From the IMG/VR virus record IMGVR_UViG_3300005466_000024, positions 1-64,000 of that record: DNA of 64,000 nucleotides, one strand, 5' to 3'. This document shows positions 1 through 31,191 of the stretch, piece after piece. Origin of the DNA: a virus. The notes below the pieces were generated by a model. It was not told the DNA's origin and did no database searches. It worked only from the letters and a program-made list of their open reading frames with translations. The stretch's first letter is position 1; every line of letters starts with the position of its first letter. Position numbers and translations under genes: made by a program.

Positions 1-348
1 GGTGACCAGGTAGGCGCGCCGCTCCTCTTCCAGGGCGGCCGCCGACAGCACCTTGTTGTCGGCACCTCCCGCACGGTTCATCATGAACACACCACCGAAG
101 CTGCCCAGCATCATGATGGGGAGGAAAAGTCCCATCCCCATCATGGGGCCGCTGCGCATGGCCGGGTTGGAGAACCAGAACCCCATGACGGCCATCACGG
201 CGGCCACCATGATCACCGGGAAGACGACCTGGCCCTTGCTCAGCGGGAGTTTGCGAGGTGCAAGAGGGGGGTCGGGCACGAACGCCTCTCCCCCATCGAA
301 TTTCGGCGGGGTCGCCCGCCGCGCGGCATTGAATCGGATGGTCGACAC
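1..348 (-). CDS. eccC: ESX/type VII secretion FtsK-SpoIIIE ATPase EccC, N-terminal part (runs off window edge)
   Basis: Not in the ORF track; translated by hand from GTG at 348: MSTTIRFNAARRATPPKFDGGEAFVPDPPLAP...two Met/Gly-rich TM helices (VFPVIMVAAVMAVMGFW; MMGMGLFLPIMMLGSFGGVFMM)...ALEEERRAYLVT. This is the typical EccC N-terminus and it starts 1 nt after the eccB stop. Confidence 0.8.
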   Translation of the reverse strand, partial: MSTIRFNAARRATPPKFDGGEAFVPDPPLAPRKLPLSKGQVVFPVIMVAAVMAVMGFWFSNPAMRSGPMMGMGLFLPIMMLGSFGGVFMMNRAGGADNKVLSAAALEEERRAYLVT

Positions 349-349
349 G

Positions 350-1840
350 TCATCCCCCCTTGGTCGTCTTGGTCGGCAGTACCGCGGTGTCCGCGGGACT
401 GTGCAGGGTCAGGGCGGCCTGCTTGGACAGTTCGGGACCGGCGGGCCACACCTGCAGCGCCCACCATGGGGCAGGCCGCACCGTCGAGGCCGTCAACCCC
501 AGGGCTGAGAGGCTGTCGTCGTCGAACGGCACTCCGTAGCGCGCCCCGCTGGGGGCGATGAGCCACATCGCGCCGCGAGCGGGTGAGTCCAGTGCCCCGC
601 CGGTGCTGGTGACGAACGTGGTCGCCTCTGCCCCGACGAGCACCTGGTCGGCCTGTACGCCGCCGCCCCCGCCCACCAGTTTCACCAGGCTGGCCTGCTG
701 GTCGGCGCCGATGGGCAGGCCCCGTCCCGATACCACGGTGAACCGGGCTTGCCGTTCGGTCTGGCTCCACTGCCAGGCCGCGCACGTCACGGGTCGACTG
801 GCCGGGTCGATGAGGTGTACCGGGTTGTGCGGGTAGTGGTCGATGTCGAGGTCGTGACGGGCGGGGATCTTGGCCAGCTGGTCGGGGGCGAGGTACGGCG
901 GCGCGGGCTGGCCGTAGGAGTCGTGTCCGCGCAGCATCGCTGCGGTCACCGGGGACACCTCCTGCACCCCGTCACCGAGGACGACGTAGAAGCGATCGGC
1001 TCCGGCGGCCACGTCGCGACCGGCGAGTACCGCACCGACGGGGACGTGCAGTCCGAATTCGGGCGGTGCGGGCTGACCCGCACCGGGTACGGTCGGCACG
1101 GTCAACGGATGTTCGGCGGGTAGCGCGTCGTACAGCGGTTGCGACATCGGCGGCACTGGGGCACCGGGGCGAATGCCCAGTGCGGTGGTGACCACGCCGT
1201 CGGTGAGGTCCACCGGCATCCGGACGCCGCCGATGACCAGGTAGGTCTGGGGTCCGTGGCCGGAGTCGTAGGCCAGCAGCAGGGCGTCGTCGGTGCCGAG
1301 TTCGCCTGCTGCGGCACTGAAGGTCAGCTGCCCGTCGATGCCGGTCACCTCGGGACCACCCCCGACGGTGGTGGGGGCGGTGTCGCACACCGCCCACCGG
1401 GATACCTGCGGCGACAACGTGGCGGGGGCCTCGATGGGTGCGCCGATGATGCCCACTGGCTCGCCCTTGGGCCATTTGGCGATCTCGCCGGGCGAGACGA
1501 AGGTGGGGGTGTCGGGGGAGCCTGCGATCAGCCGTGCGGACACCAGGTTCAGCGCTGGGTGCAGCCGGTGGTCGATGACGATGTAGAGGGCACCGGTGCT
1601 GCGGTCGGCGATGATCTTCGAGGAGTCCCCGATCACGCCGGCGGGCCGGAACCATCCGTAGACGAGCGCCCCGACCAGGGTCACGACGCCCAGCACCACC
1701 GACACCAGCAACATGGTGCGGTGCCAGTAGCTCGGGTTGGGGTCCATGCGCACGGATCGACGCAGGAACGCGAATGCGAGACGGCGACGCACGAACCAAT
1801 GCCCGGAAACCTGCGTCTTACTCGCCAAACGGAATGGCAC
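350..1840 (-). CDS. eccB: Type VII secretion membrane protein EccB (ESX-2/ESX-P-like)
   Basis: 496 aa; N-term SKTQVSGHWFVRRRL...RSVRM, single TM, then RPAG-IGDS-IIADRSTGALY-IDHRLHPALNLVSARL...GIIGAP...WAVCDT, closely following the EccB2 pattern; C-term APWWALQVWPAGPELSKQAAL. Confidence 0.93.
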   Translation of the reverse strand: MPFRLASKTQVSGHWFVRRRLAFAFLRRSVRMDPNPSYWHRTMLLVSVVLGVVTLVGALVYGWFRPAGVIGDSSKIIADRSTGALYIVIDHRLHPALNLVSARLIAGSPDTPTFVSPGEIAKWPKGEPVGIIGAPIEAPATLSPQVSRWAVCDTAPTTVGGGPEVTGIDGQLTFSAAAGELGTDDALLLAYDSGHGPQTYLVIGGVRMPVDLTDGVVTTALGIRPGAPVPPMSQPLYDALPAEHPLTVPTVPGAGQPAPPEFGLHVPVGAVLAGRDVAAGADRFYVVLGDGVQEVSPVTAAMLRGHDSYGQPAPPYLAPDQLAKIPARHDLDIDHYPHNPVHLIDPASRPVTCAAWQWSQTERQARFTVVSGRGLPIGADQQASLVKLVGGGGGVQADQVLVGAEATTFVTSTGGALDSPARGAMWLIAPSGARYGVPFDDDSLSALGLTASTVRPAPWWALQVWPAGPELSKQAALTLHSPADTAVLPTKTTKGG

Positions 1841-1896
1841 GGTCCGACGGTACCCCTTGTCGCTGTAGGACCGCTATCTGACTCGCCGAAACTACC

Positions 1897-2328
1897 CTAA
1901 CGGTGTCTCGAGTGGTCGGTCCCGAGACGGCTCTGGTCACCTGGGCACCACTTTCCGTGGATCTCCTCGTCCGTCGGATGCCAATGTGGGTCCATCGCCG
2001 CCTTGAGTAGGGTGAGGAAGACACTGGCCGTCATCACCACATACTGGTCACCAGGTTGTCTCTTGCCCCTACGCTTGACCACCGCGATCCCGGCCAACGA
2101 GGCGTCGTTGACCGATTCCTTCTCGGCCTCACGAATCGCCTCGGCCAGGTCATAGCTCTTGAGGTTCTTGCACTCGATGGTCAGCGCGTGGCCGTGAATG
2201 TGAAAGTTGCCGATGTCACCACGGTCGCGCACGCCAGTCTTCACCCGGCGATCGATGAGGTGGGACCACTGATCCTTGAACCAGTCGGCCATTACCCGTT
2301 CGAAATCTGGACCCTTCCTATTGGTCAT
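1897..2328 (-). CDS. Holliday junction resolvase, Hjc/PD-(D/E)XK type
   Basis: Probable start ATG 2328 (ATGA overlap with upstream stop); 143 aa, NRKGPDFER...DRGDI...TIECKN...GIAVVKRRG motif set. Confidence 0.75.
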   Translation of the reverse strand: MTNRKGPDFERVMADWFKDQWSHLIDRRVKTGVRDRGDIGNFHIHGHALTIECKNLKSYDLAEAIREAEKESVNDASLAGIAVVKRRGKRQPGDQYVVMTASVFLTLLKAAMDPHWHPTDEEIHGKWCPGDQSRLGTDHSRHR

Positions 2329-3365
2329 GAACCGACCTCTGGACGCAGCCAGCACTGGAACCGCGCGGGACACCGATTCATGGTGATCGAATCGGGTGAG
2401 CAGCAGTGTCTGGGCGGGGTGTCCCTGGCGATGCAGTCCATGACGTAATCGAATTTGGCGTAGGTTTCCTCGACCAGTGCGGTGTTCACCGGCTGATAGA
2501 ACTCCTTGAATTCGAACGGCATCCCCATACAGAACAACAGCAACACATAGTGGTCCTTGCCGTAGTTCACGGCCGCCAGGGATCCCTGGGCGTCCCACTC
2601 CGGTTTGACTTCGTTCTGGGTACGGAAGTTGTACGGGTTCTGGCCCTTCATCTCCACCACGAGTTGCCCAACCGTAGGGTGGTCGACGATGAAGTCGATG
2701 CGGCCCCGGATCTTGTGGATCTCATCGACGTAGGACCATTCGATGTTCTCCGGGCGCACTATCTTGGCCATCTCCATCTTGGTCTGCACGATCGCGTGCG
2801 CCGCCACGTGCATACTCAGCAGCATGTGGTCCTTGGCCAGCCGCCGTTCGGGCACCATCAAATCCCGGGTGGCGGGGTGCATGCGGTAGTACAGCTCTCG
2901 TGCCCCCATCAGGGGGTGCACCGACGGGTGGAAGTACCCAGGCCGTGGTGTGTGCTTCTTCGTGTTGACCCGGATGATGTATTCGTCCGGCCACTCGTCG
3001 GCGGTCAGTTCGTTTTCCAACATCGGCACGATCAGCTCGCGCCGTTCCATCCTCTTGAGGACGTTGCCCCAGGGTCCAGCCTCGACTGCGGTCACTGCGG
3101 TCCTCCTCGCCTCGATCGGCACAGCCCTCTCGCGCATGTGTCGCGCATGGGTTTTGAAGCTGCCGGGAACACCCGGCCACGTCCCCGCGTCCTCTGGGTC
3201 GGGCAGCTCGGGATGGGCCAGGGCCCACTCGTACAGGTCGACCAGCAGCATGCCTGCACCCTGGCTGCGGACGGTCCAGCTGCAGCAGCGCTGGCCACTC
3301 GTCACCGTCCAGCCGCTGCCACTGGGGACGACGGCCCATTTGCGGGTATGGATGGCGTTGCTCAC
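2325..3365 (-). CDS. Cas4-like PD-(D/E)XK exonuclease (phage type)
   Basis: HPSVHP...RGRIDFIVD...VVEMKG...Q motif and C-terminal Cys cluster HCCSPDSITMNRCPARFQCW; next to RecA. Confidence 0.7.
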   Translation of the reverse strand: MSNAIHTRKWAVVPSGSGWTVTSGQRCCSWTVRSQGAGMLLVDLYEWALAHPELPDPEDAGTWPGVPGSFKTHARHMRERAVPIEARRTAVTAVEAGPWGNVLKRMERRELIVPMLENELTADEWPDEYIIRVNTKKHTPRPGYFHPSVHPLMGARELYYRMHPATRDLMVPERRLAKDHMLLSMHVAAHAIVQTKMEMAKIVRPENIEWSYVDEIHKIRGRIDFIVDHPTVGQLVVEMKGQNPYNFRTQNEVKPEWDAQGSLAAVNYGKDHYVLLLFCMGMPFEFKEFYQPVNTALVEETYAKFDYVMDCIARDTPPRHCCSPDSITMNRCPARFQCWLRPEVGS

Positions 3366-3715
3366 GGTGCGTCTTTCGCCCGTTGCACGATCTCCACGAA
3401 GTCATCCAACAGCAGGACTACGACATCCAGCGGCGACTCGCCGGACGGTTCCAGCCGAATCGGCATGACGAACCGCCGACCCGTGCCGGCCGCGGTGCGG
3501 GCCCACTGCCGCAGCAGCTTGGCTTGCAGTGGGAACGAGCCGTGCGTCGTGTGCTTGCACTCGGCCTGCAGCGGGAACCGGTTGTCGATGAGGTCGTTGT
3601 CGACGCAGTCACCGGGGGAGTGCCAGCGCGCCCCGGAGTTGGGGGTGGCGTCCAGGCCCAGGAGGGCCTGGACATCCTGCTCGAAGCGCTTCCAGGCCGC
3701 GATCCCGCCCTTCAC
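3362..3715 (-). CDS. Second Hjc-like PD-(D/E)XK resolvase/nuclease
   Basis: 117 aa; AWKRFEQDV...TPNSGA...PGD...LQAECKHT pattern; coupled to recA by overlap. Confidence 0.6.
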   Translation of the reverse strand: MKGGIAAWKRFEQDVQALLGLDATPNSGARWHSPGDCVDNDLIDNRFPLQAECKHTTHGSFPLQAKLLRQWARTAAGTGRRFVMPIRLEPSGESPLDVVVLLLDDFVEIVQRAKDAP

Positions 3716-4869
3716 GGGAGGGAGAGTTCTTCCATCGCGCGCTGCAGGACGTTGGGCCCGAACGGTGACCCATCGAGGTCGGTGACTGCATCGTCGGTGA
3801 CCGGGGCGATTACCGACATCGCCCGTTCGGTACGCAGCACCGCCGAGATCTCCTCGAAGAGGGCGCGATACACGACGGGATCGCTCCTGACCACCTCGAC
3901 GAGCCGATCCTTGCCCTGAACCTTGTGCTCGCCCTTCTTGTCGGGGCCGGGCAGGGCGCGGTGGTGATACCAGCCGCCACTGAACTTGATGACCTCGACA
4001 ATGATGCCCAGCCGCACGATTTCCTCGAGCTGGTCGATCCCGAACCCGTACTGTTCGGTCGCCACGGTGTACATCCGCCAGAAGGCCTCCCGGCCTTCGA
4101 TGCCCCCGACCTGATTCTTGACGACCCGGCCCACGACTTCGGTGCCGACTTCGACGGTTTCACCGTCGACCTTGGCCTGGAACTTCGCGGGCCGCTCCCT
4201 GATGAGAATGCGCAACGAGCAATGGTGCCGCCAGGCGTTGCCGCCCACGGTCACATAGCGGTGGTATCCGTCCTGATCGACCCGCAGTTGGTTGATCCCC
4301 ATCGTGCAGCACTCGTACCGGTTGGAATGATTGCCGGCCACGCGGGCGAACTCGCTGATCAGCCTCGCCGCGTCACGACCACCACCGGACACCTCGGCAC
4401 TGCGTTCGGTGACCCGTTTGGGGATGCCACCCGCAATCGAGTCGTACAGAACGAAGCAAACGTGCCCGGAACTTACGAACTCCCGGTAGGTGTCCGTGGC
4501 TTTTTCGATATCGGCCGGATAGTGCGGGATGAATCGCTCCATGCGCTCGGGCCCGAGGAGCTGCTCGACGCGGTCCATGGGGGTCTTGCCCTCCGTGTCG
4601 ATGTACAGGCCGTAACGGTCGGGATAGGCGTCCAGGAAGTTGCGCATCGCAGTCAGGGCCAGGGTCGTCTTGCCCGCGGATTCCGAACCGAACAACTCGA
4701 CCACCCGGTCGGCGGGTAGGCCGCCGCCGCCGATGGCCAGGTCCAGCGCGAGGGATCCCGAGGAGACGCGCGGGCGCTTCGGAACCTCGGCGGCGGTCAT
4801 GATGGATCCGGGGCCCTGCGCTTTCTGCACGGCCGCGATCAGCTTCGCCACGTCCTTGTTGGCCATCAC
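3712..4869 (-). CDS. recA: RecA-like recombinase
   Basis: [36 protein letters not shown] (Walker A), YDSIA (Walker B), [24 protein letters not shown]. Start at GTG 4869 or ATG 4866, overlapping the dnaE stop. Confidence 0.93.
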   Translation of the reverse strand: [385 protein letters not shown]

Positions 4870-7800
4870 ACTTTCCTTTTCGATGCCAGGTTGTCCAGGC
4901 GGACCAGCTCCACTAGCCGTGCCCCTCGCCCGTCCTTGCGGCACTCACACGCCACGGGCGCACCGAGGCTGATCATGCCCTTGACCTGGGTCCACTCGCG
5001 GGGGAAGGCGGTGAACTCGAAGTCCGATTCGGCAAACCTTACCGTCACGAACGCCATTTCCTGGCCAGCCTGGAACCCACTCTTGATGGCGTGTCGCGTC
5101 ACCTTGGTCACCTGCCCGGCGATGGTCAACCGGGCCCCGGTGTCGGCGTCATCGATGTCGGCGGGGTCGTAGATCACCTCTCCCTCGAGCAAGGACAGGT
5201 AGGACTCCAGCGGGTCCACTGTGATGTGCCGACCACACAGCTCCTGTTCGATCCCGTAGATGACGGCGGGGTCGGTGAAATCGGGTATCTCGATGTGGCT
5301 CCCCGGCATCGCCAGGCGTCGCTCCACGATCGCCGCCAGTTTCTCGGGATTGGTGCGGGTGCTCTCGGCGAGATCCCGGGTGACCATGTGGTACTCGTAC
5401 TGGCGCAACAGTTCGGCCCGGTCACCGAGGGAATCCAGTGCCCCCACCTTGATGAGGTTGACGATCACGGTCTTGTTGGCACCCTTGCCCGCAGTCGCCA
5501 GGTAGTCCTGCAGGGACCGGTAGGGGCGCCCCGCGACGATGTCGCGGGCGCTCGCCGCGGCGATGCCGCGCAACGCATCGAGTCCGTAGCGGATGGAGTC
5601 GTCGGTGATGGTGAACTTCTGTCCAGACAGGTTCACGTCGGGCGGCAGTACGGCCAGACCCATTCGCCGCGCCTCGCGAATGTACTCGGGGGTGTTGGCG
5701 GGATCGCTGACGAGCAACCCCATCACGAATTCTGCGGCATAGTGGTGCTTGGGCCAGATCTCCCAGTACCCGGTCATCGCATAGCCGGTGGCGTGTGCGT
5801 GGCCGAACGCGTAGCGTCCACTGGCTTCGATCGATGTCCAGATCTTCTCGATGACCTTCAGCGCCGCATCGCGTTGGAAGTCGCCGCCATCGGGTGGGCC
5901 ACCGAAGAGTGCAGTGAACTCGGTGTTGGCCAGACAGCCCGCGGCGAACTCCTCCCACATCGCCTTGATCTTGTCCATGTACTTCTTGCCCAGCGCCTTG
6001 CGCAGGTCGTCGGCCTCGTCGGCGGAGAATCCGGCCAGGTCACGGGAGGCCCGCATCATTTGTTCCTGATAGACCAGCACACCGTGGGTGTCGGCGGTGA
6101 TCGGCTCCATCAGCGGATGGTCGTAGGTGGTGGATTCCACGCCGGCCCGACGCCGCAGGAACCTTTCGGTCAGTCCCGCGTCCTTGACGCCGGGCCGGAT
6201 GATGCTGATCAGCAGCGCCAGGTCCTCGATGCTGGTGGGCTTGAGTTCGATGGCGGTGCGGGTGGTCCCCGCAGTCAGCTGGAAGATGCCGGTGGTGCGC
6301 CCGCGATGGATCTGGGGCCACACCGCCGGGTCGTGTTCGGGTAATGCCTCCCAGTCGATGTCGACTCCGTGTCGTTCCCGGATCAGGCGTTTCGTTACCT
6401 CGAGAGTGTCGAGGTTGCGCAGGCCGAGCAGGTCGAACTTCACCCCACCCAGCTCTTCGACCTCGAGCATGTCGAACTGGGTGGTGACGACCTCTTTCGC
6501 GGTTCCGTGGTGACGGGTGCGCATTGGGATCCGTCCCAGCAACGGATCCTTGTTCATCAACACCCCGGAGGGGTGCTTGCCGGACTGGCGGGCGATACCC
6601 ACCAGGAGGCCCAGCAGGCGGAACAGTTCGGCGTGTTTGTGCGCCCATGGGGCCAGATCGCCGCCCTTCTCCTGCAGGATCTCGTCCCACCGGACCTCGT
6701 CGCCCTTGTCGCCGGCATGCTCGCCGCGCGCCTCCATGGCACTGGCGGCCAACTTGGTGGCCTTGTCGATGATCTTGCTCATCGCTTCGACGTCCGCTTG
6801 TGGCACCTTCTGGCGCCCCATCGCACGGGCCAGGTCGCGCAACATGGCCTTGGGGGCGTTGCGGGTGATGGTGCCGATGGTGCAGACGTGGTCGTGGCCC
6901 CAGCGCGCTCCCAGGTACTTCACCATGTCACCCAGCCTCGACTGGGGGAAGTCGATGTCGATGTCGGGTGGGCTCTTCCGGGCGGGGGTCAGGAACCGCT
7001 CGAACAGCAGGCCATAACGGATCGGGTCGATGGCGGTGATACCGAGCAGCCAGGTCACCAGGGAACCACCTGCCGACCCGCGGCCGGGGCCGACCCCGAT
7101 CGGCTCTTTGTGTGGCCCCTTGACGTACTGTGCCCAGCTGCCGGTTTTGGCGGCCCTCACCATGTCTTCATCGACACAGAAGTAGCCGCAGTTATGGACC
7201 CGAATTCCCTCGGCGACATACGTCGGATCACCATCAACCGACAAGTTGTAAACCAACCCGCTGTAGTGACGACTCGTCACACCTTTGACCCGCACCCACC
7301 ACCTGTCACCATCACGACGGGCACCATATGGAGCCTTCTTGCGCTCTTCCTGCCAACAAACCCGATACTTCTGCCGATCCAGCCAACGGTAGGAGATTTC
7401 CGTCGCCCATATCCCCGTGCGCAGAAGAATCTGTCGTAACTGAAACGCCAGTACCGGATTGCAGGTGTCGACGATCTTCCTGCCGTTCGCTTTCGTTGTG
7501 CCGTCCCCGTCGAACCACCCATCGACAAACGCCCGCAACGACTCCGATGACAACGACATCAGCCATGGGCTGAGTCGTTTCTCGTAGACCCCCGTCCCAA
7601 CCACCTCTGACAGGAATAACGCCAACGGATGGTTTGTGACTATGTGCAGCAAGCCCTTGTGGTTTGGGGCTCCCGCCCATGTCTTAGCGTATGTACGCAG
7701 CTCGCCCATCCCCAATTCCCGCAGACAGGAGGCTAGTCGATCACGAATCGCCATTTCGTCACGATGAAGGGTCCACCCCACCTGACCTGGACATGTCGAT

Positions 7801-9428
7801 GAATCGGGGTCATACAGATGACCCTCTGCCACCCACAGACCGACCACGTACATGAGTGCTGGGGACGGCATCAATTTGTCGGGTGCCCAACCCTTGGATC
7901 GACGCGCGCTTTTCCACCGACCGAGGACCACCTTGGTGAACCCCTCGCCTGATGGCGATACCCACCATCCCCGATCTAACGCCAATCCGAGCAAATCGAA
8001 CGGGCTGTCGACGCCCTCAGGCGCATCAACAGCCACCTCATCGCCGCGCCTAAACCTCCCCAGTTCCTGCCATCCACTAGGAGTCAGGACAGGATGTTCT
8101 TTGGTGCCAGACAGTTTGCGATACGAACCTGCGACAGCTATTTCCGCCAACTGCTCCTCTACGGGCCTGCTGGACACTCGCGCAACTCGCTGCTGTCCCG
8201 CCCTGGTCTCCACGTAGTCACCCGGCCGGATCGTCCCTATCGCCCGCAGTCCCTGCGCTGTGCTGACCTGCGTGCCCGGTGGAAAACAGAAACCCTTGTC
8301 GATGATGAGCTGGCATTCGCTCTCCGCGCGCTGTAGGTAGCGTTCCTGATCGAGGCCACCATCGATCACCTTGCGTTTGAATCCTTCGGTGACGAGGTCG
8401 AGGAATTTCTCGATGTCGTCGTGGTCGTTGCCGGTGAAGCTGGGCATTCCCAGGGTGGGCCGGATTTCGGCCACGCAGGTCTGCGCGATCTGCCACGACA
8501 TGTCTATCGCCCGTTCCACGTGCGGGGCGTCGATGCCGTGCCGGCCCATCCAGTAGTAGAGCTCCTGGTCGCCCATCAGGTGGTCGGCCTTCTGGCCCTC
8601 GGGCAGCTGGTCACCCTTGTTGCCGGTGTTGATCCGCCACACCATGTCCTTGAGTTCCCACTCCTCCGGACGGGTGTGGTGGGCGTCGTTGACGACGACC
8701 TGCGGGATCCCCAGCTCGGTCGCCAACCGCAGCTTGGCCCGATTGAACTCGGATGCCAGCGCATTGGCTTGTGCGGTGCACATTTTGGTGTCGAGGAACT
8801 TGATCTCGTCGTCGGTGCGGGGGTTCATGAACTGCCAGGTGTGCAACTCGGAGAAAAACCGGTCACCGAACACGGCCAACAGCCGCCCGTAGATCTGGCG
8901 GGCCTCCTCCTCATCGCCGCGCACCAGGATCGCTCGCGCCAATTCCGTGAGCAAGCACCCGTCCGAAGCCCACAGGCCGTCGCGATAGTGCCGTAGCAGC
9001 TCGAGGTCGGCCAGTGGCTTCTTGTGGAAGTACTTGCGCTGGTAGGCCACCGACGACAGCGCCCACAGGTTGGCCAGTCCTTGCTGGGATGCGGCGATCA
9101 ACGTGATGTGGGAATTGGGGACTTCCTTTTTCTGCGCAATGTCATCGACGTAATATCCTTCCATCCCGAATATCGGGTGGACACCCTCGGCAATACAGGC
9201 TTTCTGGAATGCATAGTGTTGATTGCACTCACCGTGGTCGGACAAACCAATGGCCGCTTGCCCCAATTCCCGGGCACGCTTGGCGATCGAGGTGACGGGG
9301 GAGTACCCGTCCAGAAAGCTGCCCTCACTATGCACGTGATAGTTGACGAAATGGCTGGCCAGGGAAGCTTCTTCGCGCCTGCGCAGTTCCAGCGCAGCAT
9401 TGAAGTCGATGATTCTGGCATCGCCCAT
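4866..9428 (-). CDS. dnaE: DNA polymerase III alpha subunit (DnaE) containing an intein
   Basis: PHP motifs HVHSEGSFLDG, SDHG, NDAHH; GPGRGSAGGS, FERFL, PDIDIDF catalytic motif, KFDLLGL, C-terminal OB fold (MAFVTV). Confidence 0.95.
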   Translation of the reverse strand: MGDARIIDFNAALELRRREEASLASHFVNYHVHSEGSFLDGYSPVTSIAKRARELGQAAIGLSDHGECNQHYAFQKACIAEGVHPIFGMEGYYVDDIAQKKEVPNSHITLIAASQQGLANLWALSSVAYQRKYFHKKPLADLELLRHYRDGLWASDGCLLTELARAILVRGDEEEARQIYGRLLAVFGDRFFSELHTWQFMNPRTDDEIKFLDTKMCTAQANALASEFNRAKLRLATELGIPQVVVNDAHHTRPEEWELKDMVWRINTGNKGDQLPEGQKADHLMGDQELYYWMGRHGIDAPHVERAIDMSWQIAQTCVAEIRPTLGMPSFTGNDHDDIEKFLDLVTEGFKRKVIDGGLDQERYLQRAESECQLIIDKGFCFPPGTQVSTAQGLRAIGTIRPGDYVETRAGQQRVARVSSRPVEEQLAEIAVAGSYRKLSGTKEHPVLTPSGWQELGRFRRGDEVAVDAPEGVDSPFDLLGLALDRGWWVSPSGEGFTKVVLGRWKSARRSKGWAPDKLMPSPALMYVVGLWVAEGHLYDPDSSTCPGQVGWTLHRDEMAIRDRLASCLRELGMGELRTYAKTWAGAPNHKGLLHIVTNHPLALFLSEVVGTGVYEKRLSPWLMSLSSESLRAFVDGWFDGDGTTKANGRKIVDTCNPVLAFQLRQILLRTGIWATEISYRWLDRQKYRVCWQEERKKAPYGARRDGDRWWVRVKGVTSRHYSGLVYNLSVDGDPTYVAEGIRVHNCGYFCVDEDMVRAAKTGSWAQYVKGPHKEPIGVGPGRGSAGGSLVTWLLGITAIDPIRYGLLFERFLTPARKSPPDIDIDFPQSRLGDMVKYLGARWGHDHVCTIGTITRNAPKAMLRDLARAMGRQKVPQADVEAMSKIIDKATKLAASAMEARGEHAGDKGDEVRWDEILQEKGGDLAPWAHKHAELFRLLGLLVGIARQSGKHPSGVLMNKDPLLGRIPMRTRHHGTAKEVVTTQFDMLEVEELGGVKFDLLGLRNLDTLEVTKRLIRERHGVDIDWEALPEHDPAVWPQIHRGRTTGIFQLTAGTTRTAIELKPTSIEDLALLISIIRPGVKDAGLTERFLRRRAGVESTTYDHPLMEPITADTHGVLVYQEQMMRASRDLAGFSADEADDLRKALGKKYMDKIKAMWEEFAAGCLANTEFTALFGGPPDGGDFQRDAALKVIEKIWTSIEASGRYAFGHAHATGYAMTGYWEIWPKHHYAAEFVMGLLVSDPANTPEYIREARRMGLAVLPPDVNLSGQKFTITDDSIRYGLDALRGIAAASARDIVAGRPYRSLQDYLATAGKGANKTVIVNLIKVGALDSLGDRAELLRQYEYHMVTRDLAESTRTNPEKLAAIVERRLAMPGSHIEIPDFTDPAVIYGIEQELCGRHITVDPLESYLSLLEGEVIYDPADIDDADTGARLTIAGQVTKVTRHAIKSGFQAGQEMAFVTVRFAESDFEFTAFPREWTQVKGMISLGAPVACECRKDGRGARLVELVRLDNLASKRKV
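7191..8288 (-). mobile_element. Intein with LAGLIDADG homing endonuclease (366 aa) in DnaE
   Basis: Starts CFPPGTQV, ends VYNLSVDGDPTYVAEGIRVHN followed by extein Cys; LAGLIDADG blocks YVVGLWVAEGH and FVDGWFDGDG; one hand-counted 60-mer is 55% GC, below flanks. Confidence 0.93.
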
Positions 9429-9542: not shown

Positions 9543-10823
9543 CTACCCCTTCGCTCGGCTCTCCAACCGTTCCCTCAGTGTGCCGTATTCGGTCTTGCCC
9601 GGCCCTACCACCTGGGCCTCATTGGCCGGTGCGCCCGCAGTCGGTGCGGACGAGGCCGGTGCGGATGGCGGTGGTGCGGACGAGGCCGGTGGCGTGGTCA
9701 CTGGGTCGGGGTTGTGGGTGGTTGCGGCGTGGAACTCGCCGTAACCGGTGTTACCGAGCCCGGCGGGAGCGTTGCCGAACCCGCCAGCCACGGAACCGGC
9801 GGTAGCAACGGGAGCCACCACCGGTCCCGCGTACTGCGGCGGGGGTGCGTACTGGGGTGGCGGTGGTGGGGCGTACTGCTGCGGTGGCGGCGGTGGGGCG
9901 TACTGCTGTTGTGGGGCGTACTGCTGCGGCGGCGGTGGCGGCGCGTACTGCTGTTGTGGGGCGTACTGCGGCGGGGGTGCGTACTGCTGGGGGGCGCCTC
10001 CGGCCCCAGCGGGAATGTTGTCGAGGTTCAACCACTTCCTGATCCACTGCTCGCTGCCGAAATAGTCGGCCCAGTCGTCCAGCGTGCGCGGGCAGAAGAG
10101 GAACCGCTGAGGATCCTCGTTGTTCCACGGCGGCCGACTCTGGCCGGGGGGCACATGCTGATCACACTGATAGCCGTAGAACTGCTCGACGGTGCCAGGG
10201 TCGCGCAGCGCATCAATGGCCGGGAAGGGCACCATCGAATAGTCCTTCTGCCCGGTACGGATGATCTCTATGTCGTAGGTACACGGATCCCCGTAGCGAC
10301 GGGCAATACCCGCGATGTGCGACCAGAAGTTGCTCTCGGACTGCTGCACGAGTCCGAACAGTCGGGCTGGCAACTGCTGGTTCTCGACCGTCTCGTAGTA
10401 CTCGTCATCGACCACCTCCGTCTGCGCCCCGGTCGTCCCTGCAACGAGGCGTTCCTTGCGCACTACCGCGATACCAATGGTCTGTTCGCGCGTCTCCGGT
10501 TCCTTGAGTGCATTCGAACCGTATTCCCTCATCATGCCGATGGTGGAGCCAACGGCAGCGGCGGCGGCCCGGTACTTCGCGACAAGATCCCCCCTGCGCG
10601 GGTCGAAGATGAACGTACGGACGGACCCGTCGTTGCAGATGACGCCGTTGTAGAAGTGGGCGGTGATGAAGTGGTCGCTGTGATGCACGAAGCGGATGAT
10701 CTTCTTCTCGCCGGGCTTCCACTTCATGCCGCGCAGGGAACCGCCCCCGCCGGTGCCGACACTGGCCGCGCGCTCCTTACCGCGCTCCACGGCCTCCTGC
10801 ATTGCTGCCAAACCTGTCTTCAT
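9543..10823 (-). CDS. Probable phage ssDNA-binding protein with Pro/Gln/Tyr low-complexity tail
   Basis: Between primase and DnaE; KKIIRF, YDIEIIRTG...DYS pattern reminiscent of gp32-like SSBs; APPPPPQQY/APQQQY repeats; strong RBS. Confidence 0.5.
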   Translation of the reverse strand: MKTGLAAMQEAVERGKERAASVGTGGGGSLRGMKWKPGEKKIIRFVHHSDHFITAHFYNGVICNDGSVRTFIFDPRRGDLVAKYRAAAAAVGSTIGMMREYGSNALKEPETREQTIGIAVVRKERLVAGTTGAQTEVVDDEYYETVENQQLPARLFGLVQQSESNFWSHIAGIARRYGDPCTYDIEIIRTGQKDYSMVPFPAIDALRDPGTVEQFYGYQCDQHVPPGQSRPPWNNEDPQRFLFCPRTLDDWADYFGSEQWIRKWLNLDNIPAGAGGAPQQYAPPPQYAPQQQYAPPPPPQQYAPQQQYAPPPPPQQYAPPPPPQYAPPPQYAGPVVAPVATAGSVAGGFGNAPAGLGNTGYGEFHAATTHNPDPVTTPPASSAPPPSAPASSAPTAGAPANEAQVVGPGKTEYGTLRERLESRAKG

Positions 10824-10838
10824 TTTTTGTTTTTCCTT

Positions 10839-10931
10839 CTGTGCTACCGGGATACAGGTGCTGGATTGATCTGGTGTGTGCTGTGCTACTGGGCTACAGG
10901 TGCTGGATTGATCTGGTGTGTGCTGTGCTAC
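10839..10931. repeat. 42-bp tandem repeat, about 2.2 copies, upstream of SSB-like gene
   Basis: CTGTGCTACYGGGMTACAGGTGCTGGATTGATCTGGTGTGTG at 10839-10880 and 10881-10922 (2 mismatches), plus partial CTGTGCTAC at 10923-10931. Confidence 0.9.
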
Positions 10932-10981
10932 TTGCAGTGTAGATGCGATCTGCGCATTGTGACCTGATTATGGGTCCTGTT

Positions 10982-11242
10982 TTACACGCACCTCTTCTCT
11001 GCGGGGACGGCTGGGTGCCCGGTCAGACTGGCTCGTTTGGTGTCGAGTCGACGGCACTGGCACTCCTGTAGTTCTTGGTGGCGGACCCACCGGTCGCCCT
11101 GCTCTGCCTGTAGTTTCTCGCGCAGCGGGGACCTGTCGGCAAGGAGCACGACTTTACCCTGGGGGTGTGACGCGTCTGGCGCGAAACGCCGCACGTGATA
11201 GCCGTCCGGCAATGTCTCGATCACGGGGTCCGTCTCGCCCAT
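10982..11242 (-). CDS. Hypothetical protein (86 aa)
   Basis: RBS GAGGGAG; co-oriented directly downstream of primase. Confidence 0.55.
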   Translation of the reverse strand: MGETDPVIETLPDGYHVRRFAPDASHPQGKVVLLADRSPLREKLQAEQGDRWVRHQELQECQCRRLDTKRASLTGHPAVPAEKRCV

Positions 11243-11260
11243 GGGGATTTCTCCCTCGAA

Positions 11261-12337
11261 CTACCGCCGATATCGTTCGGCTCGAGCATATTCTGCCATC
11301 CGGACGGTAGCCGGTATGGCTGACAGCAGTTTAGCCTGCACCTGCTCCGGCGCGTCGCAATCACCGAGGTCCCTGTCCGTGTCGGGGATGACGACTCCGA
11401 TGATGTCGGGCCCGCGTTGATAGAGCCGTTCCAGTAGCTGGCGCACACCCTTCTCGCCGGCGGGACCGGAATCGAACCACAGGATGATGTGCCGGAAACC
11501 GCGTCGCAGCAGCAGTTCGGCCTGTCGCGCACTGGTCTTGGCGCCCCACGTGGACACGGTGTTGGGGAATCCAAGGCTGACGGCCTTGGCCACGCTCATC
11601 GGGGACTCCACGACCACGACCCGGCCACCGGTCACGTTGTCGAGGTTGAAGATGGTTTCCGATTTCGGGAAACCCGCCGCGTTGAGGTACTTCGGGCCGG
11701 GCGGCACCGTGCCCGGCCACCGTCCGGGCCGATCGGGAATGGCACGCTTCTGCCAGCCCACCAGCCGCCCCTCGTGGAACGCGGGGAACACCACCCGGTT
11801 GGCCTGCGGATCGTAACCGATCCGCAGCCGCCGACAGGTTTCGGGATCGATCCCACGCTCCTCGTACAGATAGGGGTGGATCGCATCCCAGTTGTCGAGG
11901 ATGCGTTCGGAGTAGCACGCCATCTCAAGGGGGGCACCGGGCCCGGCGAGTATCCGTTCTGCCTTGGCCCGGAAGTCGTCGATGTCGGTGGCGGCAGCGG
12001 TGAAGAACTGCCCGACATGGGGCAACACGTCGGTCAGTTCCTGGTCGTGCAGCTTGGCCAGCAAGTGCAGCAGGTCACCACTCCACCCACCGGACCTGCA
12101 GTGATATAGCTTCTTCTCCAGGTTCAGCGACGCGCTCGGATGTGCGTCACCGTTGGTGTGGTGCGGTTCGACCCGGTCGATGAGGCAGGAGTGCCGGATC
12201 TCGGTGGTCCCGTCGTCGCCGAACCCCTCCGTACAGTTCTCGGCGTGGTACTTCTCGAGGATCGCGCGTCCGTCGATGTGTTGTAGGTATTGGCGATACA
12301 TGCTGCGGTGCAGCATGTCCTGTAGCCCGGTTTTCAT
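11261..12337 (-). CDS. dnaG: DNA primase (CHC2-like Zn finger plus TOPRIM)
   Basis: HSCL...H...PSASLNLEKKLYHC; VVFP; KYLN; VVVVESPMSV; ILWFDSGPAGEKG; DLGD. Confidence 0.85.
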   Translation of the reverse strand: MKTGLQDMLHRSMYRQYLQHIDGRAILEKYHAENCTEGFGDDGTTEIRHSCLIDRVEPHHTNGDAHPSASLNLEKKLYHCRSGGWSGDLLHLLAKLHDQELTDVLPHVGQFFTAAATDIDDFRAKAERILAGPGAPLEMACYSERILDNWDAIHPYLYEERGIDPETCRRLRIGYDPQANRVVFPAFHEGRLVGWQKRAIPDRPGRWPGTVPPGPKYLNAAGFPKSETIFNLDNVTGGRVVVVESPMSVAKAVSLGFPNTVSTWGAKTSARQAELLLRRGFRHIILWFDSGPAGEKGVRQLLERLYQRGPDIIGVVIPDTDRDLGDCDAPEQVQAKLLSAIPATVRMAEYARAERYRR

Positions 12338-12501
12338 GGTCCGGACAGCCTTTCCTTCAGTCTTTCGATGAGCATGTCGTTGAAGTGCGCCACCCGCTGG
12401 CCGGCGGTTTCAGCGTCCACCACACCCTCGGCCACGACGTCTTCGACGGCCTTCATCCCTGGGCAGGGCGCGCCTACTTCGACGAGATCGTCACTCGGCA
12501 C
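12334..12501 (-). CDS. Small hypothetical protein (55 aa)
   Basis: GTG 12501 just after the upstream stop; MPSDDLVEVGAPCPGM...; overlaps primase start. Confidence 0.45.
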   Translation of the reverse strand: MPSDDLVEVGAPCPGMKAVEDVVAEGVVDAETAGQRVAHFNDMLIERLKERLSGP

Positions 12502-12505
12502 GCCC

Positions 12506-13246
12506 TCACCTCCCTGGATAGCCGTCGGGGTAGAACGCGCAGGGCCCGCAGTGTCGGCGCCCTCCCGCATCGAACGTGTAGTAGTTGCCGCACCTGTTGC
12601 AGCACTTGCTGGCCACCATCGTGTTGGTCGTGACGGTGTACGTGTCGGTGGCGGCAATGGACAGTTGTGCATCGCCGCGGACTTCGATCCTGGCCACCGG
12701 GTCCATGTCCCGCCACACCGTCACCTCGGTCACCCTCGGTTCGATGAGGGGAAAGTAGGATCCGGCGGGCTGGGGGTTGGCGTTGAGCACGGCGGGGTAG
12801 TGCTGGTGCGGGGGGATGCCCCGGCCCTCGGCGGTGTAGCGGTGCATGAATACGTCGCAGTACATCCACATGTTCGCGTCGCCGGCGAAGGCCGTCCGCA
12901 TTTCCCGCCACACGTCGGGCACTGCGGCGATCAGCCGGGCATCGAATTTCACCAGTCCGAAGGGCGCGCAGCGGTCGGCGGCGCAGTCGATACCGGCGTC
13001 GTAGCCGAAGAAGCACCACGGTTCGCGGCAGGCCACCAGTTCCTCGATCGCTCCCGGCCAGGGCACGATGTCGTGTTCGAGGGAGATGAAGGTCTCCCCT
13101 TCGTCCCAGCGGGCCTGGAAGTACTCGGCGTAGGCCGCTCTGTCACCGGACACGTCCACGTAGTGGATGGGGTGTTTCTGGTGTGCCAGGAACACCCGTG
13201 TGGCCTCGCGCACATGGGTGTGCGGGACGTACACGGGTACCGTCAT
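12506..13246 (-). CDS. Glycosyltransferase-like (GT-A) protein with C-terminal CxxC...CxxC
   Basis: ATG 13246 overlaps dnaB stop (ATGA); FISLEHDIVP matches the FE(H/Q)DMI motif of the GT-like genes at 47845 and 48536; CNRC...CGPC zinc ribbon. Confidence 0.5.
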   Translation of the reverse strand: MTVPVYVPHTHVREATRVFLAHQKHPIHYVDVSGDRAAYAEYFQARWDEGETFISLEHDIVPWPGAIEELVACREPWCFFGYDAGIDCAADRCAPFGLVKFDARLIAAVPDVWREMRTAFAGDANMWMYCDVFMHRYTAEGRGIPPHQHYPAVLNANPQPAGSYFPLIEPRVTEVTVWRDMDPVARIEVRGDAQLSIAATDTYTVTTNTMVASKCCNRCGNYYTFDAGGRRHCGPCAFYPDGYPGR

Positions 13247-14604
13247 CGCGAGTCGCCGGGGTAGATCCTGCCATCGATGGCCATCTGGGTCATGCCCCGC
13301 AGCTGCCACTTCAGCATCCATTTGGCGGTGGCGCAGCGGCGCGCCCCCAGGATGGTCATCCTCATCATCTCGTTGTCGTATTCCTGGTCGGTACGCGAAA
13401 TGCCGAGCAGAATGTCGGCTTCCCGTTCGACCTCGGCGGCGTCGGCGAACGATTCGATGGTCAGCTCGGTGTCCCCGCGACGGGCCTGTACCGCGAGGAA
13501 GCAGGGGATCTCCATGCCGGGTCGGCTGATCTCGTCGTGCAGGTTCTTCAGAATCGAGGCGTATTGTTCCTTGCGGTTGGGGGTGGTGTGCCCGGCCTCC
13601 ATGTGACTGAGCTGGTCGATGAGCATATAGTCGCAACCGGCCTGGCGTGCCCGTGCACACAGGTGCGCCGGTGTGCGCTCACCCCGTTCGGGCCGCTCGA
13701 TCAGCAGGCCCCCGCAGTCGCGCAGGATCTCCTGCGTCTCGTACAGCGTCTGTTCCTCGTCGGGAAACAGACGCCCCTTGGACAACCGATCGTAGGACAC
13801 CCCGGACAGAATCGCATCGGCACGGTCCTGCATGTCGCCCAGCGACACCTCCAGGCTGTAGACGATCGGTTTGTGCCCCTTGCTGACGGCGTTGAGTGCC
13901 GCGTTGAGCAGCATGAACGTCTTCCCTGTCTTTGCCATCGCCCCGACCACCGCCAGTTCGCCGGGCAGCAGGCTGCCGGTGTGAAAGTCCAACTCATCGA
14001 AGCCCAGCGTCACCCCCAGTCCCTGGGGGTTCTCCCGGCGCTTGGCGTAGCGTTCGCGGCGTTCGGCGATGGTGTCGGCCATGTTGACCCGGCTCAGCCG
14101 GGCCACCGTCGATTCCTTGAGCGCAAAACCAGCTGTCGTGAGGGTGTGCAGTGTGCCCTCGGGATCCTCGACCAGTGTGGTCAGTGACCCCATCACCACG
14201 TCCTGGAGTTGGCGTCGCAGGAACCGGCGTTTGATCTCCCCCGCAAGCCAGGTGGTGGACTCCTCGACGGCGGTCGGCAGCACCAGCCCAGAGAATTCGG
14301 TGGCCAGTACCAGTGCGGTGGGGGCGGCGGTCTTGGCGTTCTCCAGCCAGTAGGCCGTGGTGAAGTGGTACACGGCCTGGGTCAGCGGTTCGATGAAGTG
14401 CTCGGCGCGCAGTCCGATGTCCCAGGCCTTGCCGATCTCCTCGGGCACGAACAGCCGCCCCAGTAGGCACCGTTCGACATCGAGTGGTTGTTCGGTCAGG
14501 GGGCTGGCCCACACCTGCCCGGCAAGGTCGACCTGACCGGCGGCTGCCTCGACCGGCGCTCCATTCAGCGGCGGCGCCCCGAGGCGTCGCCCCAGCTCCG
14601 CCAC
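13243..14604 (-). CDS. dnaB: DnaB-like replicative helicase
   Basis: GVTLGFDELD...LLPGELAVVGAMAKTGKT (Walker A), YSLEVS, IDQLSHM (Walker B), AVQARR, EREADI. Confidence 0.9.
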   Translation of the reverse strand: MAELGRRLGAPPLNGAPVEAAAGQVDLAGQVWASPLTEQPLDVERCLLGRLFVPEEIGKAWDIGLRAEHFIEPLTQAVYHFTTAYWLENAKTAAPTALVLATEFSGLVLPTAVEESTTWLAGEIKRRFLRRQLQDVVMGSLTTLVEDPEGTLHTLTTAGFALKESTVARLSRVNMADTIAERRERYAKRRENPQGLGVTLGFDELDFHTGSLLPGELAVVGAMAKTGKTFMLLNAALNAVSKGHKPIVYSLEVSLGDMQDRADAILSGVSYDRLSKGRLFPDEEQTLYETQEILRDCGGLLIERPERGERTPAHLCARARQAGCDYMLIDQLSHMEAGHTTPNRKEQYASILKNLHDEISRPGMEIPCFLAVQARRGDTELTIESFADAAEVEREADILLGISRTDQEYDNEMMRMTILGARRCATAKWMLKWQLRGMTQMAIDGRIYPGDSR

Positions 14605-21304: not shown

Positions 21305-22762
21305 ATGCTCTCCGGTATCGGAAACCCGAAGCCCACCGATGAACAGCAGGCCATTATCGAGGCCGCCCGTGAGGGCGGCCACGTGGCCATCCAGGCCGGC
21401 GCGGGTACGGGCAAGACGTCCACCTTGCAGATGGTGGCCGATGCGCTGCCCACCGATGCCCTTTACGTGGCCTACAACCGCGCCATCGCCGATGACGCGG
21501 CGATGCGGTTCCCACGCCACGTGACTTGCCGCACCGCCCATTCGCTCGCGATGCGCGAGGTCGGCAAGGACTACCGCCACCGCCTCAACGGCCCGCGGCG
21601 CACCAATCGGGAGATCGCCCAGATGATGGGCCTGCGCTGGCTCGAGGTGACCTCCGACATCAGGTTGTCGCCTGCGCAGGTGGCCCGCATCGTCATGGAC
21701 ACCGTTCGCCGGTTCTGTTTCTCCGCCGACGAGCACCTGTCCGATTTCCACGTGCCGCTGCAACCCAAGATCACCGGCACCGCTCATCGCGCCATGGCGA
21801 AGGCCGTGGCACCGCTGGCCACCAAGTACTGGAACGACGTGATCGACCACAACGGCACGCTGCCCTATACCCACGATTTTTATCTCAAGACCTGGGCCTT
21901 GACGAAACCTATCCTGCCGGTCGACGTGATCTTTTTGGATGAGGGCCAAGACGCTAACCCAGTGATTGCTGCCCTGGTCGAAAACCAGTCGCACGCTCAG
22001 CAAATCGTTGTTGGTGACGCCTGCCAGCAACTCTATAGCTGGCGAGGGGCCTCCGATGTGTTGTCGACCTGGCCGGGGGCCCGCCAACTCTACCTGTCGC
22101 AGTCCTGGCGCTTTGGGGAGGCCATCGCAGAAGAGGCCAACAAGTGGCTGTCCCTGCTGCCCACGTCGCTGGAGTTGACCGGCAATCCGGCCATCACGTC
22201 GCGCCTGGCGGTTCTGGAAACTCCCACTGCGGTGTTGTGCCGTACCAACGCGGGGGCGATGGACATGGTGATGGCGTTCCTGGACGCCGGGGAGAAGGTG
22301 GCCATGGTGGGCGGCGGAACTGCCTTGTGCCAGCTGGCCGAGGCCGCGAAGACGTTGATGGCCGGGCAGCGTACCGGTCATCCGGAGCTGTACACCTTCC
22401 GCAGCTGGGAGGACGTCCGCGACTATGTCGGTACCGACGGCTCCGGCGATGACCTGCGGGCGTTCGTCAACCTGATCGAAACGCACGGCCCCGACGCGAT
22501 CATCCGCGCCACCAAGGCCCTGACCGATGAGTTCCACGCCACCACGGTGGTGTCGACGGTTCATCGCGCGAAAGGGCGTCAGTGGCCCACTGTGTGTGTG
22601 GGTGACGATTTCTTTGGCCCTGATGACGATGGCCACCTGTCCTCGGCCGAGACGATGGTGGGTTATGTCGCGGTCACCCGGGCGCAGGAGGTTCTCGACC
22701 GAACCGGGCTGGCCTGGATCGACGATTACGTCGACCGTCTCACCTCAGATACGACGGAGTGA
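21305..22762 (+). CDS. UvrD/Rep-like SF1 helicase
   Basis: PTDEQ, AGAGTGKT, FLDEGQD, VGD-CQQLYSWRGA, LSQSWRFG, LCRTNA, STVHRAKG, YVAVTRA; probable start ATG 21305. Confidence 0.9.
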   Translation: MLSGIGNPKPTDEQQAIIEAAREGGHVAIQAGAGTGKTSTLQMVADALPTDALYVAYNRAIADDAAMRFPRHVTCRTAHSLAMREVGKDYRHRLNGPRRTNREIAQMMGLRWLEVTSDIRLSPAQVARIVMDTVRRFCFSADEHLSDFHVPLQPKITGTAHRAMAKAVAPLATKYWNDVIDHNGTLPYTHDFYLKTWALTKPILPVDVIFLDEGQDANPVIAALVENQSHAQQIVVGDACQQLYSWRGASDVLSTWPGARQLYLSQSWRFGEAIAEEANKWLSLLPTSLELTGNPAITSRLAVLETPTAVLCRTNAGAMDMVMAFLDAGEKVAMVGGGTALCQLAEAAKTLMAGQRTGHPELYTFRSWEDVRDYVGTDGSGDDLRAFVNLIETHGPDAIIRATKALTDEFHATTVVSTVHRAKGRQWPTVCVGDDFFGPDDDGHLSSAETMVGYVAVTRAQEVLDRTGLAWIDDYVDRLTSDTTE

Positions 22763-27620: not shown

Positions 27621-27649
27621 ACCCTTTCCGCCGCCGCCCTCTGCTTAGC

Positions 27650-28996: not shown

Positions 28997-29378
28997 GACT
29001 TATCCCCCCTGCCGCCGCGGGACGGTAAATGTACTCATCACCCTCCCAGTCATCGGGATCGGCGACGACATGGCTGTGGGGCACACTCCGTTGCAGCACC
29101 CTGCCCGTTCCGGCGTAGTCCTTCGCGAGCTGTTTGTTCGTGGTGACGAAATCGCCCGGAACGATCCCCTTCTGACCCCACGGTGCGCCCCGATAAATGA
29201 CGACCGGCTCGTCGGCCTGGACGCCACGCAGTTTGTCCAGCGTGAGTAGGTGCGGACTGATCGGGCCCGTCCGCGAGGATGGGTCGTAGTCGACGAATAG
29301 GCCACCCGTCGGATTGACGCTTTCCAATGTTGGATGCCACGCGGCCACTCGTTCGCGGGCCGTCAGGATCCTGCGCAT
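28989..29378 (-). CDS. ADP-ribosyltransferase-fold protein with MRRILTARERVAAWH leader (129 aa)
   Basis: Start ATG 29378 (TGATG overlap with baseplate J); VVIYRG...PGDFVTTNKQLAKDY...EGDEYIY resembles R-S/T-E ART strands. Confidence 0.55.
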   Translation of the reverse strand: MRRILTARERVAAWHPTLESVNPTGGLFVDYDPSSRTGPISPHLLTLDKLRGVQADEPVVIYRGAPWGQKGIVPGDFVTTNKQLAKDYAGTGRVLQRSVPHSHVVADPDDWEGDEYIYRPAAAGGISRG

Positions 29379-31135: not shown

Positions 31136-31188
31136 CTCCCTCTGTGGGAGGAGTCCCTATGGGACTCCTCGCCTTTTTAGGGGCGAGG
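31135..31188 (-). promoter_or_regulatory. Three overlapping alternative hairpins over the baseplate J translation start
   Basis: CCTCGCC/GGCGAGG (31167-31188), GAGGAGTCCC/GGGACTCCTC (31148-31170), CCTCCC/GGGAGG (31135-31151). Confidence 0.55.
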
Positions 31189-31191
31189 GGT

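Follow-up and report, generated by a model that had tools for sequence, protein, structure and literature searches.

Phage-plasmids are on record in mycobacteria as cluster A siphoviruses of ~53 kb that carry partition genes only (PMC7969092). Among conjugative plasmids, transfer of pRAW requires both eccC and a virB4-like gene (PMC4173767), and the linear plasmids of Mycobacterium avium that carry a type VII and a type IV secretion system (T7SS and T4SS) have no matches to actinobacteriophages (PMC12803027, 2026). The nearest concept to the element described here is that of the “Hodor” megaplasmids, conjugative plasmids of >300 kb from gut Bacillota with a classical T4SS, in which prophages are a minor and excisable part (PMC12934698, bioRxiv 2026). 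We analyzed the first 64,000 bases (positions 1 to 64,000, hereafter the window) of the 180,705-bp IMG/VR virus record IMGVR_UViG_3300005466_000024, which is classed as linear and 100% complete according to CheckV, and in which genes of an ESX T7SS lie directly beside the genes of a contractile-tailed phage. With the contigs that extend it, this record forms a 243,381-bp circular map in which a full T7SS/T4SS conjugation module and a relaxase are joined to a complete contractile-tailed phage, an arrangement found in no phage or plasmid collection searched.

The element resembles the phage-plasmids P1, N15, and SSU5 and the extrachromosomal cluster A phages in having a tailed-phage genome, a circular map, no integrase, and plasmid-derived genes. 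Compared with the known mycobacterial phage-plasmids, it has a full conjugation apparatus, while clear partition or Rep genes were not found. It shares with the Hodors the organization of one conjugative replicon that includes a whole phage genome, and in both cases lysogenic spread would be freed from the infective host range. However, here the phage makes up ~70% of the element, there is no excision system, and transfer would use a T7SS/T4SS hybrid. Searching the literature, we found no phage with T7SS machinery and no conjugative mycobacterial phage-plasmid. We consider the element to be probably a stable phage-plasmid cointegrate, in which a ~170-kb myophage of the Phrappuccino/cluster C type resides within a ~73-kb ESX-P (pRAW-class) plasmid, giving a circular, non-integrating replicon of ~243 kb. 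By homology, its host would be a soil member of the Mycobacteriaceae.

The joint and the circular map

A preliminary description of this DNA had placed eccB and the start of eccC 56 bp after the last phage gene, encoding a Hjc-like resolvase, on the same strand, and this is correct in every detail. The features of the window at the joint are the following:

1..348, minus strand: 5' part of eccCa (first 116 codons), cut by the contig end; matches TIGR03924 positions 3-84, E 5e-8
350..1840, minus strand: eccB, first gene of the ESX-P-type T7SS/T4SS conjugation block; 496 amino acids (aa), full length; PF05108 and TIGR03919
1841..1896, no strand: phage-to-plasmid joint, a 56-bp spacer; identical in a strain ~2% diverged
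1897..2328, minus strand: Hjc-like / PD-(D/E)XK nuclease gene, last phage gene before the joint; phrog_244, E 2e-23

EccB matches both models (E 3e-134 for Pfam PF05108; 468 bits for TIGR03919, with a cut-off of 154). The nuclease gene, eccB, and the start of eccCa lie on one strand, with eccB 56 bp downstream of the nuclease gene. The 143-aa nuclease belongs to a family (phrog_244) labeled “RusA-like Holliday junction resolvase” and contains, by eye, an FE...D...ECK motif typical of Hjc/PD-(D/E)XK nucleases, with neither a Pfam match nor a PDB sequence match. A simple scan of the 56-bp spacer revealed no promoter- or terminator-like site, and its RNA fold is not unusual (z = -1.1).

The same description had noted the lack of any tRNA, integrase, att-like repeat, or compositional break, and this also held. 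There is no tRNA in the 64-kb window, no tyrosine or serine recombinase in the 180.7-kb contig or among the Pfam annotations of the genes in the gap, and no repeat of >13 bp common to both boundaries. The GC content is 65.6% in the phage part and 66.2% in the plasmid part, without a break, and no att-like repeat was found at 1841-1896. No route for precise excision is visible. Elsewhere on the contig, ARAGORN gave two odd tRNA-like calls (141882-141958 and 180538-180634), one with a four-base anticodon and one of 97 nt. The 97-nt call, a tRNA-Gly at the right contig end, was taken as false, as it lies inside a Pro/Gly-rich coding region.

To follow the element beyond the record, we relied on short-read metagenome assemblies, probably from related field sites. 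Assemblies from ENA, JGI, and Logan contain the same EccB as a 465-aa gene call on nine other contigs, and one further contig has a variant of 464 aa. Seven contigs from seven samples (ENA and JGI) span the run from the Hjc-like gene through eccB to eccC and continue past window position 1 into eccCa, eccCb, and beyond, at 100% identity or nearly so (98.4% in one diverged strain), and two more contigs with this run (one from Logan) are listed but lack their DNA. Over 40 contigs, assembled from the metagenomes of about ten rhizosphere samples, cross both ends of the 180.7-kb contig at 98.4-100% identity. Exact-overlap stitching resulted in a circular map of 243,381 bp on which all the fetched contigs tile at 98.4-100%. 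Through the missing 62.7 kb, the walk arrives at the opposite end of the 180.7-kb contig, both ends being bridged by several contigs from different samples, and no chromosomal genes were met walking in both directions around the circle. The 180.7-kb contig by itself was rejected as a full circle, since its two ends, when joined, do not continue eccC; no FtsK/SpoIIIE domain was found in it.

Each phage/plasmid joint is found in the interior of long contigs that come from more than one assembler and project (both joints in ENA k141 and JGI contigs, the far-end joint also in Logan). The breaks shared by the assemblies of several samples fall within eccCa and within a Pro/Gly-rich PPE-like gene, not at the joints. 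The two gene sets are physically linked, the circle closes, and both sets are complete and intact. The rest of the ESX operon, the T4SS-like genes, and a relaxase, which had been predicted for the left flank, are all on contigs that cross the contig end. The circularity that the preliminary description wished to see checked is there, and its proposal of one replicon encoding both a contractile-tailed virion and a conjugation apparatus agrees with the presence of both gene sets on one 243-kb circular map. The IMG/VR record, scored as 100% complete, lacks 62.7 kb, i.e., 26% of the replicon, including nearly all the conjugation genes.

The insertion can be read from either side. From the plasmid side, about 170 kb of phage DNA separates an EspK_C-like gene (contig 171737-173872) from eccB. 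In three metagenomic relatives (EccB 62-65% identical), the EspK_C-like gene is located 0.85-1.45 kb upstream of eccB, and one relative contig of 64 kb carries DUF4226, EspC-like, PPE-like, YbaB, EspK_C, eccB, and eccC in a single run. From the phage side, about 78 kb (the plasmid part together with ~5 kb of unassigned genes) breaks the Phrappuccino-like backbone at one site, the plasmid part falling between the homologues of Phrappuccino gp125 and gp129. The homologues of gp129-gp132, which in Phrappuccino come directly after the exonuclease/endonuclease genes, lie at contig 163.6-166.8 kb, and therefore ~78 kb of foreign DNA interrupts one phage site. Reciprocal single insertions of this kind are the expected product of a single crossover between two circles.

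The strain that is ~2% diverged (contig L010, JGI 3300005439) has an identical 56-bp joint, and therefore the fusion is older than the split between the two strains. Comparison of both strains gave 107 synonymous and 40 nonsynonymous changes in the ESX genes (pN/pS 0.13), and 15 synonymous and 2 nonsynonymous changes in the three phage genes beside the joint (pN/pS 0.04). The ESX genes have been under purifying selection since the fusion.

The conjugation block and its plasmid relatives

Beyond eccB, the order of genes is eccCa, eccCb, a 90-aa open reading frame (ORF), PE, PPE, two Esx-like genes of ~98 aa, EspG, a MinD/CbiA-like ATPase, EccD, and MycP, followed by an Endonuclease VII gene, EccE, and a VirD4/TraG-like protein (473 aa), and then by Ku, a TcpC-like protein (313 aa), a VirB4-like AAA_10 ATPase (950 aa), a 721-aa protein, and EccA. 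After EccA, a TrwC/MobF relaxase of 1920 aa is found on the opposite strand. The ~23 kb beyond MobF contains mostly genes of no known function, together with a ParB-like domain protein, PAPS reductases, DUF3560, WhiB, a helix-turn-helix protein, and a strong member of phrog_1362. The last genes before closure (DUF4226, EspC-like, PPE-like, and YbaB/DUF2710) correspond to the other end of the 180.7-kb contig.

EccB, EccCb, EccD, MycP, EccE, and MobF have scores over the NCBIfam cut-offs. On contig L011, this is the case for EccD (TIGR03920, 218 bits), the mycosin MycP (TIGR03921, 348 bits), and EccE (TIGR03923, 130.5 bits). EccA obtained 377.5 bits on TIGR03922, under the cut-off of 466.65, aligned over 4-554 of 557 positions, and has Pfam T7SS_EccA1_N and AAA in the precomputed annotation, from which the Pfam matches of PE, PPE, and EspG were also taken. 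MobF scores 227.9 bits on NF041492 (cut-off 100) and is 56% identical to mycobacterial MobF. The VirB4-like ATPase (AAA_10, 90.6 bits) and the VirD4-like protein (TraG-D_C, 29.7 bits; T4SS-DNA_transf, 27.8 bits) are over their cut-offs too, and are 66% and 62% identical, respectively, to their homologues on plasmid NZ_CP092424.2 (see below). On the same plasmid, the TcpC-like protein is 53% identical to the product of a gene annotated as “conjugal transfer protein,” and the ~98-aa pair is 57-58% identical to an esx pair of which one member is annotated as WXG100.

EccC is divided into a protein of 372 aa (TIGR03924 positions 3-325) and another of 1021 aa (positions 359-669; TIGR03925, 524 bits, cut-off 346.55), and full-length eccCa/eccCb are carried by contigs L003, L004, and L011. 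The first represents the N-half of EccCa and the second the C-half of EccCa plus all of EccCb (L011 1896-6069), which is unlike the split known in ESX-1.

The nearest sequenced relative is plasmid unnamed1 of M. lentiflavum ATCC 51985 (NZ_CP092424.2), whose block is collinear at 52-67% amino acid identity. Both share the order DUF4226, EspC-like, PPE-like, YbaB ... eccB, split eccC, PE, PPE, esx pair, espG, and then MinD-like ATPase, eccD, mycP, eccE, VirD4-like, TcpC-like, VirB4-like, eccA, and opposite-strand mobF, and they also have in common the unusual 372 + 1021 aa split of EccC. The element differs from the plasmid in the insertion of the Ku, Endonuclease VII, and HNH genes and in the ~170 kb of phage DNA that keep eccB apart from the EspK_C-like gene. 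The ParA annotated on NZ_CP092424.2 has no homologue in the element, and no Rep is annotated in the part of the plasmid examined (70-220 kb).

EccB is 66.7% identical to that of NZ_CP092424.2 and 62-69% identical to the plasmid EccBs with which it groups, compared with ~39% to ESX-5 and just 38% to pRAW EccB. In a maximum-likelihood tree, EccB nests with the plasmid-borne ESX-P cluster (support 100/99), far from chromosomal ESX-5, with the longest terminal branch of its clade. The best matches of both EccB and MobF come from the same mycobacterial plasmids, namely those of M. lentiflavum, the M. pseudoshottsii/ulcerans/liflandii group, M. aubagnense, and M. chubuense.

Some genes of the block vary between samples. 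The Endonuclease VII gene (228 aa) is located between mycP and eccE in most strains (L011 14394-15080) and is missing in a contig from JGI 3300005330 (L015 12874-14389), where the mycP call is just 307 aa, and an HNH endonuclease gene downstream of the EspK_C-like gene (L018 13948-14358) is present or absent depending on the sample (compared with L019 and L020). Such strain-variable Endonuclease VII and HNH genes within the plasmid block are a phage-like feature. A Ku homologue of 262 aa (L011 18544-19332) lies between the VirD4-like and TcpC-like genes, a place where the M. lentiflavum plasmid has no Ku. Mycobacteriophages that encode Ku are said to circularize via host non-homologous end joining.

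The search for EccB in 50,697 phage records retrieved only two entries, both of “Mycobacterium phage Adler” (KC960489.1 and KF981876.1). Although filed as a phage, Adler carries the flag UNVERIFIED_ORG, is a 95.7-kb circle that encodes EccB (33% identical), EccC, EccA, a VirB4-like protein, a relaxase-like protein, ParA, and partition genes, and has no virion gene annotated in the 85.5 kb examined. It has only conjugation genes in common with the element and, from its gene content, looks like an ESX-P plasmid rather than a phage. A near-identity DNA search with window 1-6000 gave no match in the 50,697 phage records or in the plasmid collection, and among 72,556 plasmids (PLSDB) the portal gave one weak Streptomyces match and nothing else. 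Searches for other IMG/VR contigs with EccB (using the single sequence and the EccB alignment) or the exonuclease, for the 3' end of the Hjc-like gene in metagenome contigs (pattern scan), and for the portal in species-representative genomes were also negative, which is weak evidence of rarity given that near records may be hidden.

The phage backbone

The remaining features of the window are those of the phage:

2325..3365, minus strand: phage exonuclease; phrog_2506, E 4e-59; 40% identical to the Skog exonuclease
3362..3715, minus strand: phage Holliday junction resolvase; phrog_2002, E 1.5e-25
3712..4944, minus strand: RecA/UvsX-like recombinase; PF00154; 42-44% identical to those of Skog and cluster C phages
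4866..9428, minus strand: DnaE-type DNA polymerase III alpha with intein; Pfam PHP, DNA_pol3_alpha, Hint_2, Intein_splicing, LAGLIDADG_3
9543..14604, minus strand: SSB, primase, and DnaB helicase (replication arm); gene order as in Skog and Phrappuccino
22740..47120, minus strand: tail module with minor tail, baseplate wedge, virion proteins, tape measure, tail tube homologue, and tail sheath; PHROG matches; 49-76% identical to Phrappuccino homologues

Terminase, portal, major and minor capsid proteins, protease, sheath, tube, tape measure, baseplate, endolysin, and a lysin B homologue (37% identity over 83 aa) are all full length, including the capsid, portal, and terminase genes that the preliminary description had suggested looking for. 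The capsid protein is of the HK97 type, and the PHROG matches together with the Phrappuccino homologues make up a gene set of myovirus type (Caudoviricetes).

The backbone is circularly collinear with that of Phrappuccino (cluster AA), with identities of 57% for the portal, 72% for the major capsid, 65% for the minor capsid, 59% for the sheath, 62% for the baseplate wedge, and 54% for DnaE. Its other kin are the cluster C myophages (Myrna and Catera) and the Gordonia phage Skog, and the replication arm has the order DnaB, primase, SSB, DnaE, RecA, resolvase, and exonuclease in common with both Skog and Phrappuccino. In contrast to the element, these phages (Phrappuccino, cluster C, and Skog) have genomes of 136-165 kb without ESX, T4SS, or relaxase genes. 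Phrappuccino, for its part, has a tyrosine integrase, a repressor, and an excisionase (gp38, gp41, and gp42), a cassette that is absent from the element, and no recognizable domains of an immunity cassette were found at the place corresponding to the Phrappuccino integrase/repressor.

Other features of the phage part include the intein of DnaE, with Hint_2, Intein_splicing, and LAGLIDADG_3 (homing endonuclease) domains at aa 381-746, and a free-standing HNH endonuclease gene (390 aa, window 50186-51358, minus strand) in the virion gene region. At window 53250-55400, diverged direct repeats of ~120 bp (65-76% identity) overlap four plus-strand ORFs without family match in an otherwise minus-strand structural region.

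Lifestyle of the element and rival explanations

The physical fusion is well supported, while “phage-plasmid” is a hypothesis about lifestyle. As a replicon, the element looks as expected for a phage-plasmid, being extrachromosomal and non-integrating with phage and plasmid genes (circular map and no integrase), and it has none of the marks of an integrated prophage (integrase, att repeats, and host flanks).

Several observations weigh against the cointegrate reading. The circle was pieced together from contigs of several samples, probably from related field sites, and not from one long read, and the linkage is seen in assembled contigs only. Equal copy number of the two parts, virion production, and transfer are presumed. 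Some components of the conjugation apparatus score low, with EccA under its NCBIfam cut-off, the ~98-aa pair at 13.7 and 19.9 bits on WXG100 (cut-off 27.3), and the TcpC-like protein at 19.1 bits on PF12642 (cut-off 27). The element has no recognizable plasmid Rep or ParA/ParB partition pair. The preliminary description had asked for parA and rep, and the partition-related genes seen were just the ParB-like nuclease-domain protein and the MinD-like ATPase inside the ESX locus. Packaging is the chief doubt. The related phage Myrna, with a genome of 164.6 kb, has a T=16 head whose interior measures 81 nm (PMC7150772). The major and minor capsid proteins of the element are 72% and 65% identical to those of Phrappuccino (136 kb), and this capsid homology suggests a head capacity of about 165 kb. 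A Myrna-type T=16 head could not hold 243 kb, and therefore virions may not carry the whole element. The phage segment alone, of about 170 kb, is close to one such headful.

Head capacity also bears on the possibility of a jumbo phage that packages the whole ~243 kb and lacks a plasmid lifestyle, its plasmid-derived genes being phage cargo that during infection or lysogeny would serve, e.g., to pass phage DNA from cell to cell, to secrete effectors, or for exclusion. The classification of the contig as viral by IMG/VR and CheckV, the ~70% of the element that is phage backbone, the purifying selection on the ESX genes, and the strain-variable genes of homing-endonuclease type (Endonuclease VII and HNH) in the ESX block, typical of phage genomes, would all fit. 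However, the capsid genes are near those of 136-165 kb phages with T=16 heads, and, as there is no integrase, a nonlytic phase would again mean a plasmid state. In addition, no lytic phage is known to us to profit from a system built on a relaxase, which we count against a jumbo phage, and we regard it as unlikely. A total size above the likely head capacity would instead suit a conjugative ESX-P plasmid with a trapped or domesticated phage that gives no infectious virions and serves as cargo or as a device similar to a tailocin or a gene transfer agent. From the plasmid side, the phage is indeed a single insertion upstream of eccB, excision machinery is absent, and conjugative megaplasmids with whole prophages are on record (Hodors, PMC12934698). 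Yet every virion, lysis, and replication gene examined has its full length and matches its family strongly, the three phage genes at the joint have a pN/pS of 0.04, and 170 kb of dead cargo would be costly and expected to decay, which makes a trapped phage rather unlikely.

The two remaining explanations deny the fusion itself or its extrachromosomal state. That short-read assemblers misjoined a separate phage and plasmid, or a mixture of populations, could be suspected because all the data are short-read metagenome contigs, several samples belong to related studies, and contigs break repeatedly inside eccCa and the Pro/Gly-rich PPE-like gene. Nevertheless, both joints are inside long contigs from different assemblers and projects with no breaks at either, no repeat common to the joints could mislead an assembler, the diverged strain has the same joint, and the two backbones are interrupted precisely and reciprocally, so we hold an artifact to be very improbable. 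An ordinary prophage beside a chromosomal ESX locus would be conceivable in that ESX loci are found at several places in mycobacterial chromosomes and an IMG/VR record may be a provirus that was cut out. It is contradicted here by the walk in both directions, which found no chromosomal gene and closed to a circle, by the MobF and VirB4/VirD4-like genes in the flank, by an EccB that goes with plasmid EccBs (62-69%) rather than ESX-5 (~39%), and by the lack of integrase, tRNA, or att, and we give it hardly any credence.

If the element is a phage-plasmid cointegrate, it would persist extrachromosomally as a plasmid-like prophage. By analogy with pRAW, it is probably conjugative, and homology to that plasmid suggests that it would spread from cell to cell via the T7SS, the VirB4/VirD4/TcpC-like machinery, and the MobF relaxase. 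Contractile-tailed virions may also form, as the intact genes indicate. Read-through from the phage replication/recombination operon into the ESX operon is plausible, since the region that natively precedes eccB is gone and a phage gene on the same strand ends 56 bp before it, with a simple scan giving no terminator-like site in between. More tentatively, and with a chance that we put below even, the element could be a tailed phage with two working routes of spread, by virions and by its own T7SS/T4SS-MobF conjugation, in which a carrier or infected cell would hand the phage genome directly to neighboring mycobacteria, the ESX operon being switched on from the phage replication operon. In such a case, the phage genome would bypass receptor-based resistance.

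For virus catalogues, the element is a caution that a record scored as 100% complete can miss 26% of its replicon. ESX systems, which hold a central place in the biology of mycobacteria, are thought to have been disseminated by plasmids, and the linkage of a whole ESX machine to a complete tailed-phage genome points to a new vehicle by which they might travel. One replicon with both a conjugation apparatus and a virion would blur the line between phage and conjugative plasmid beyond any known mycobacterial element, and it raises a testable question, i.e., whether a phage genome can spread by conjugation.

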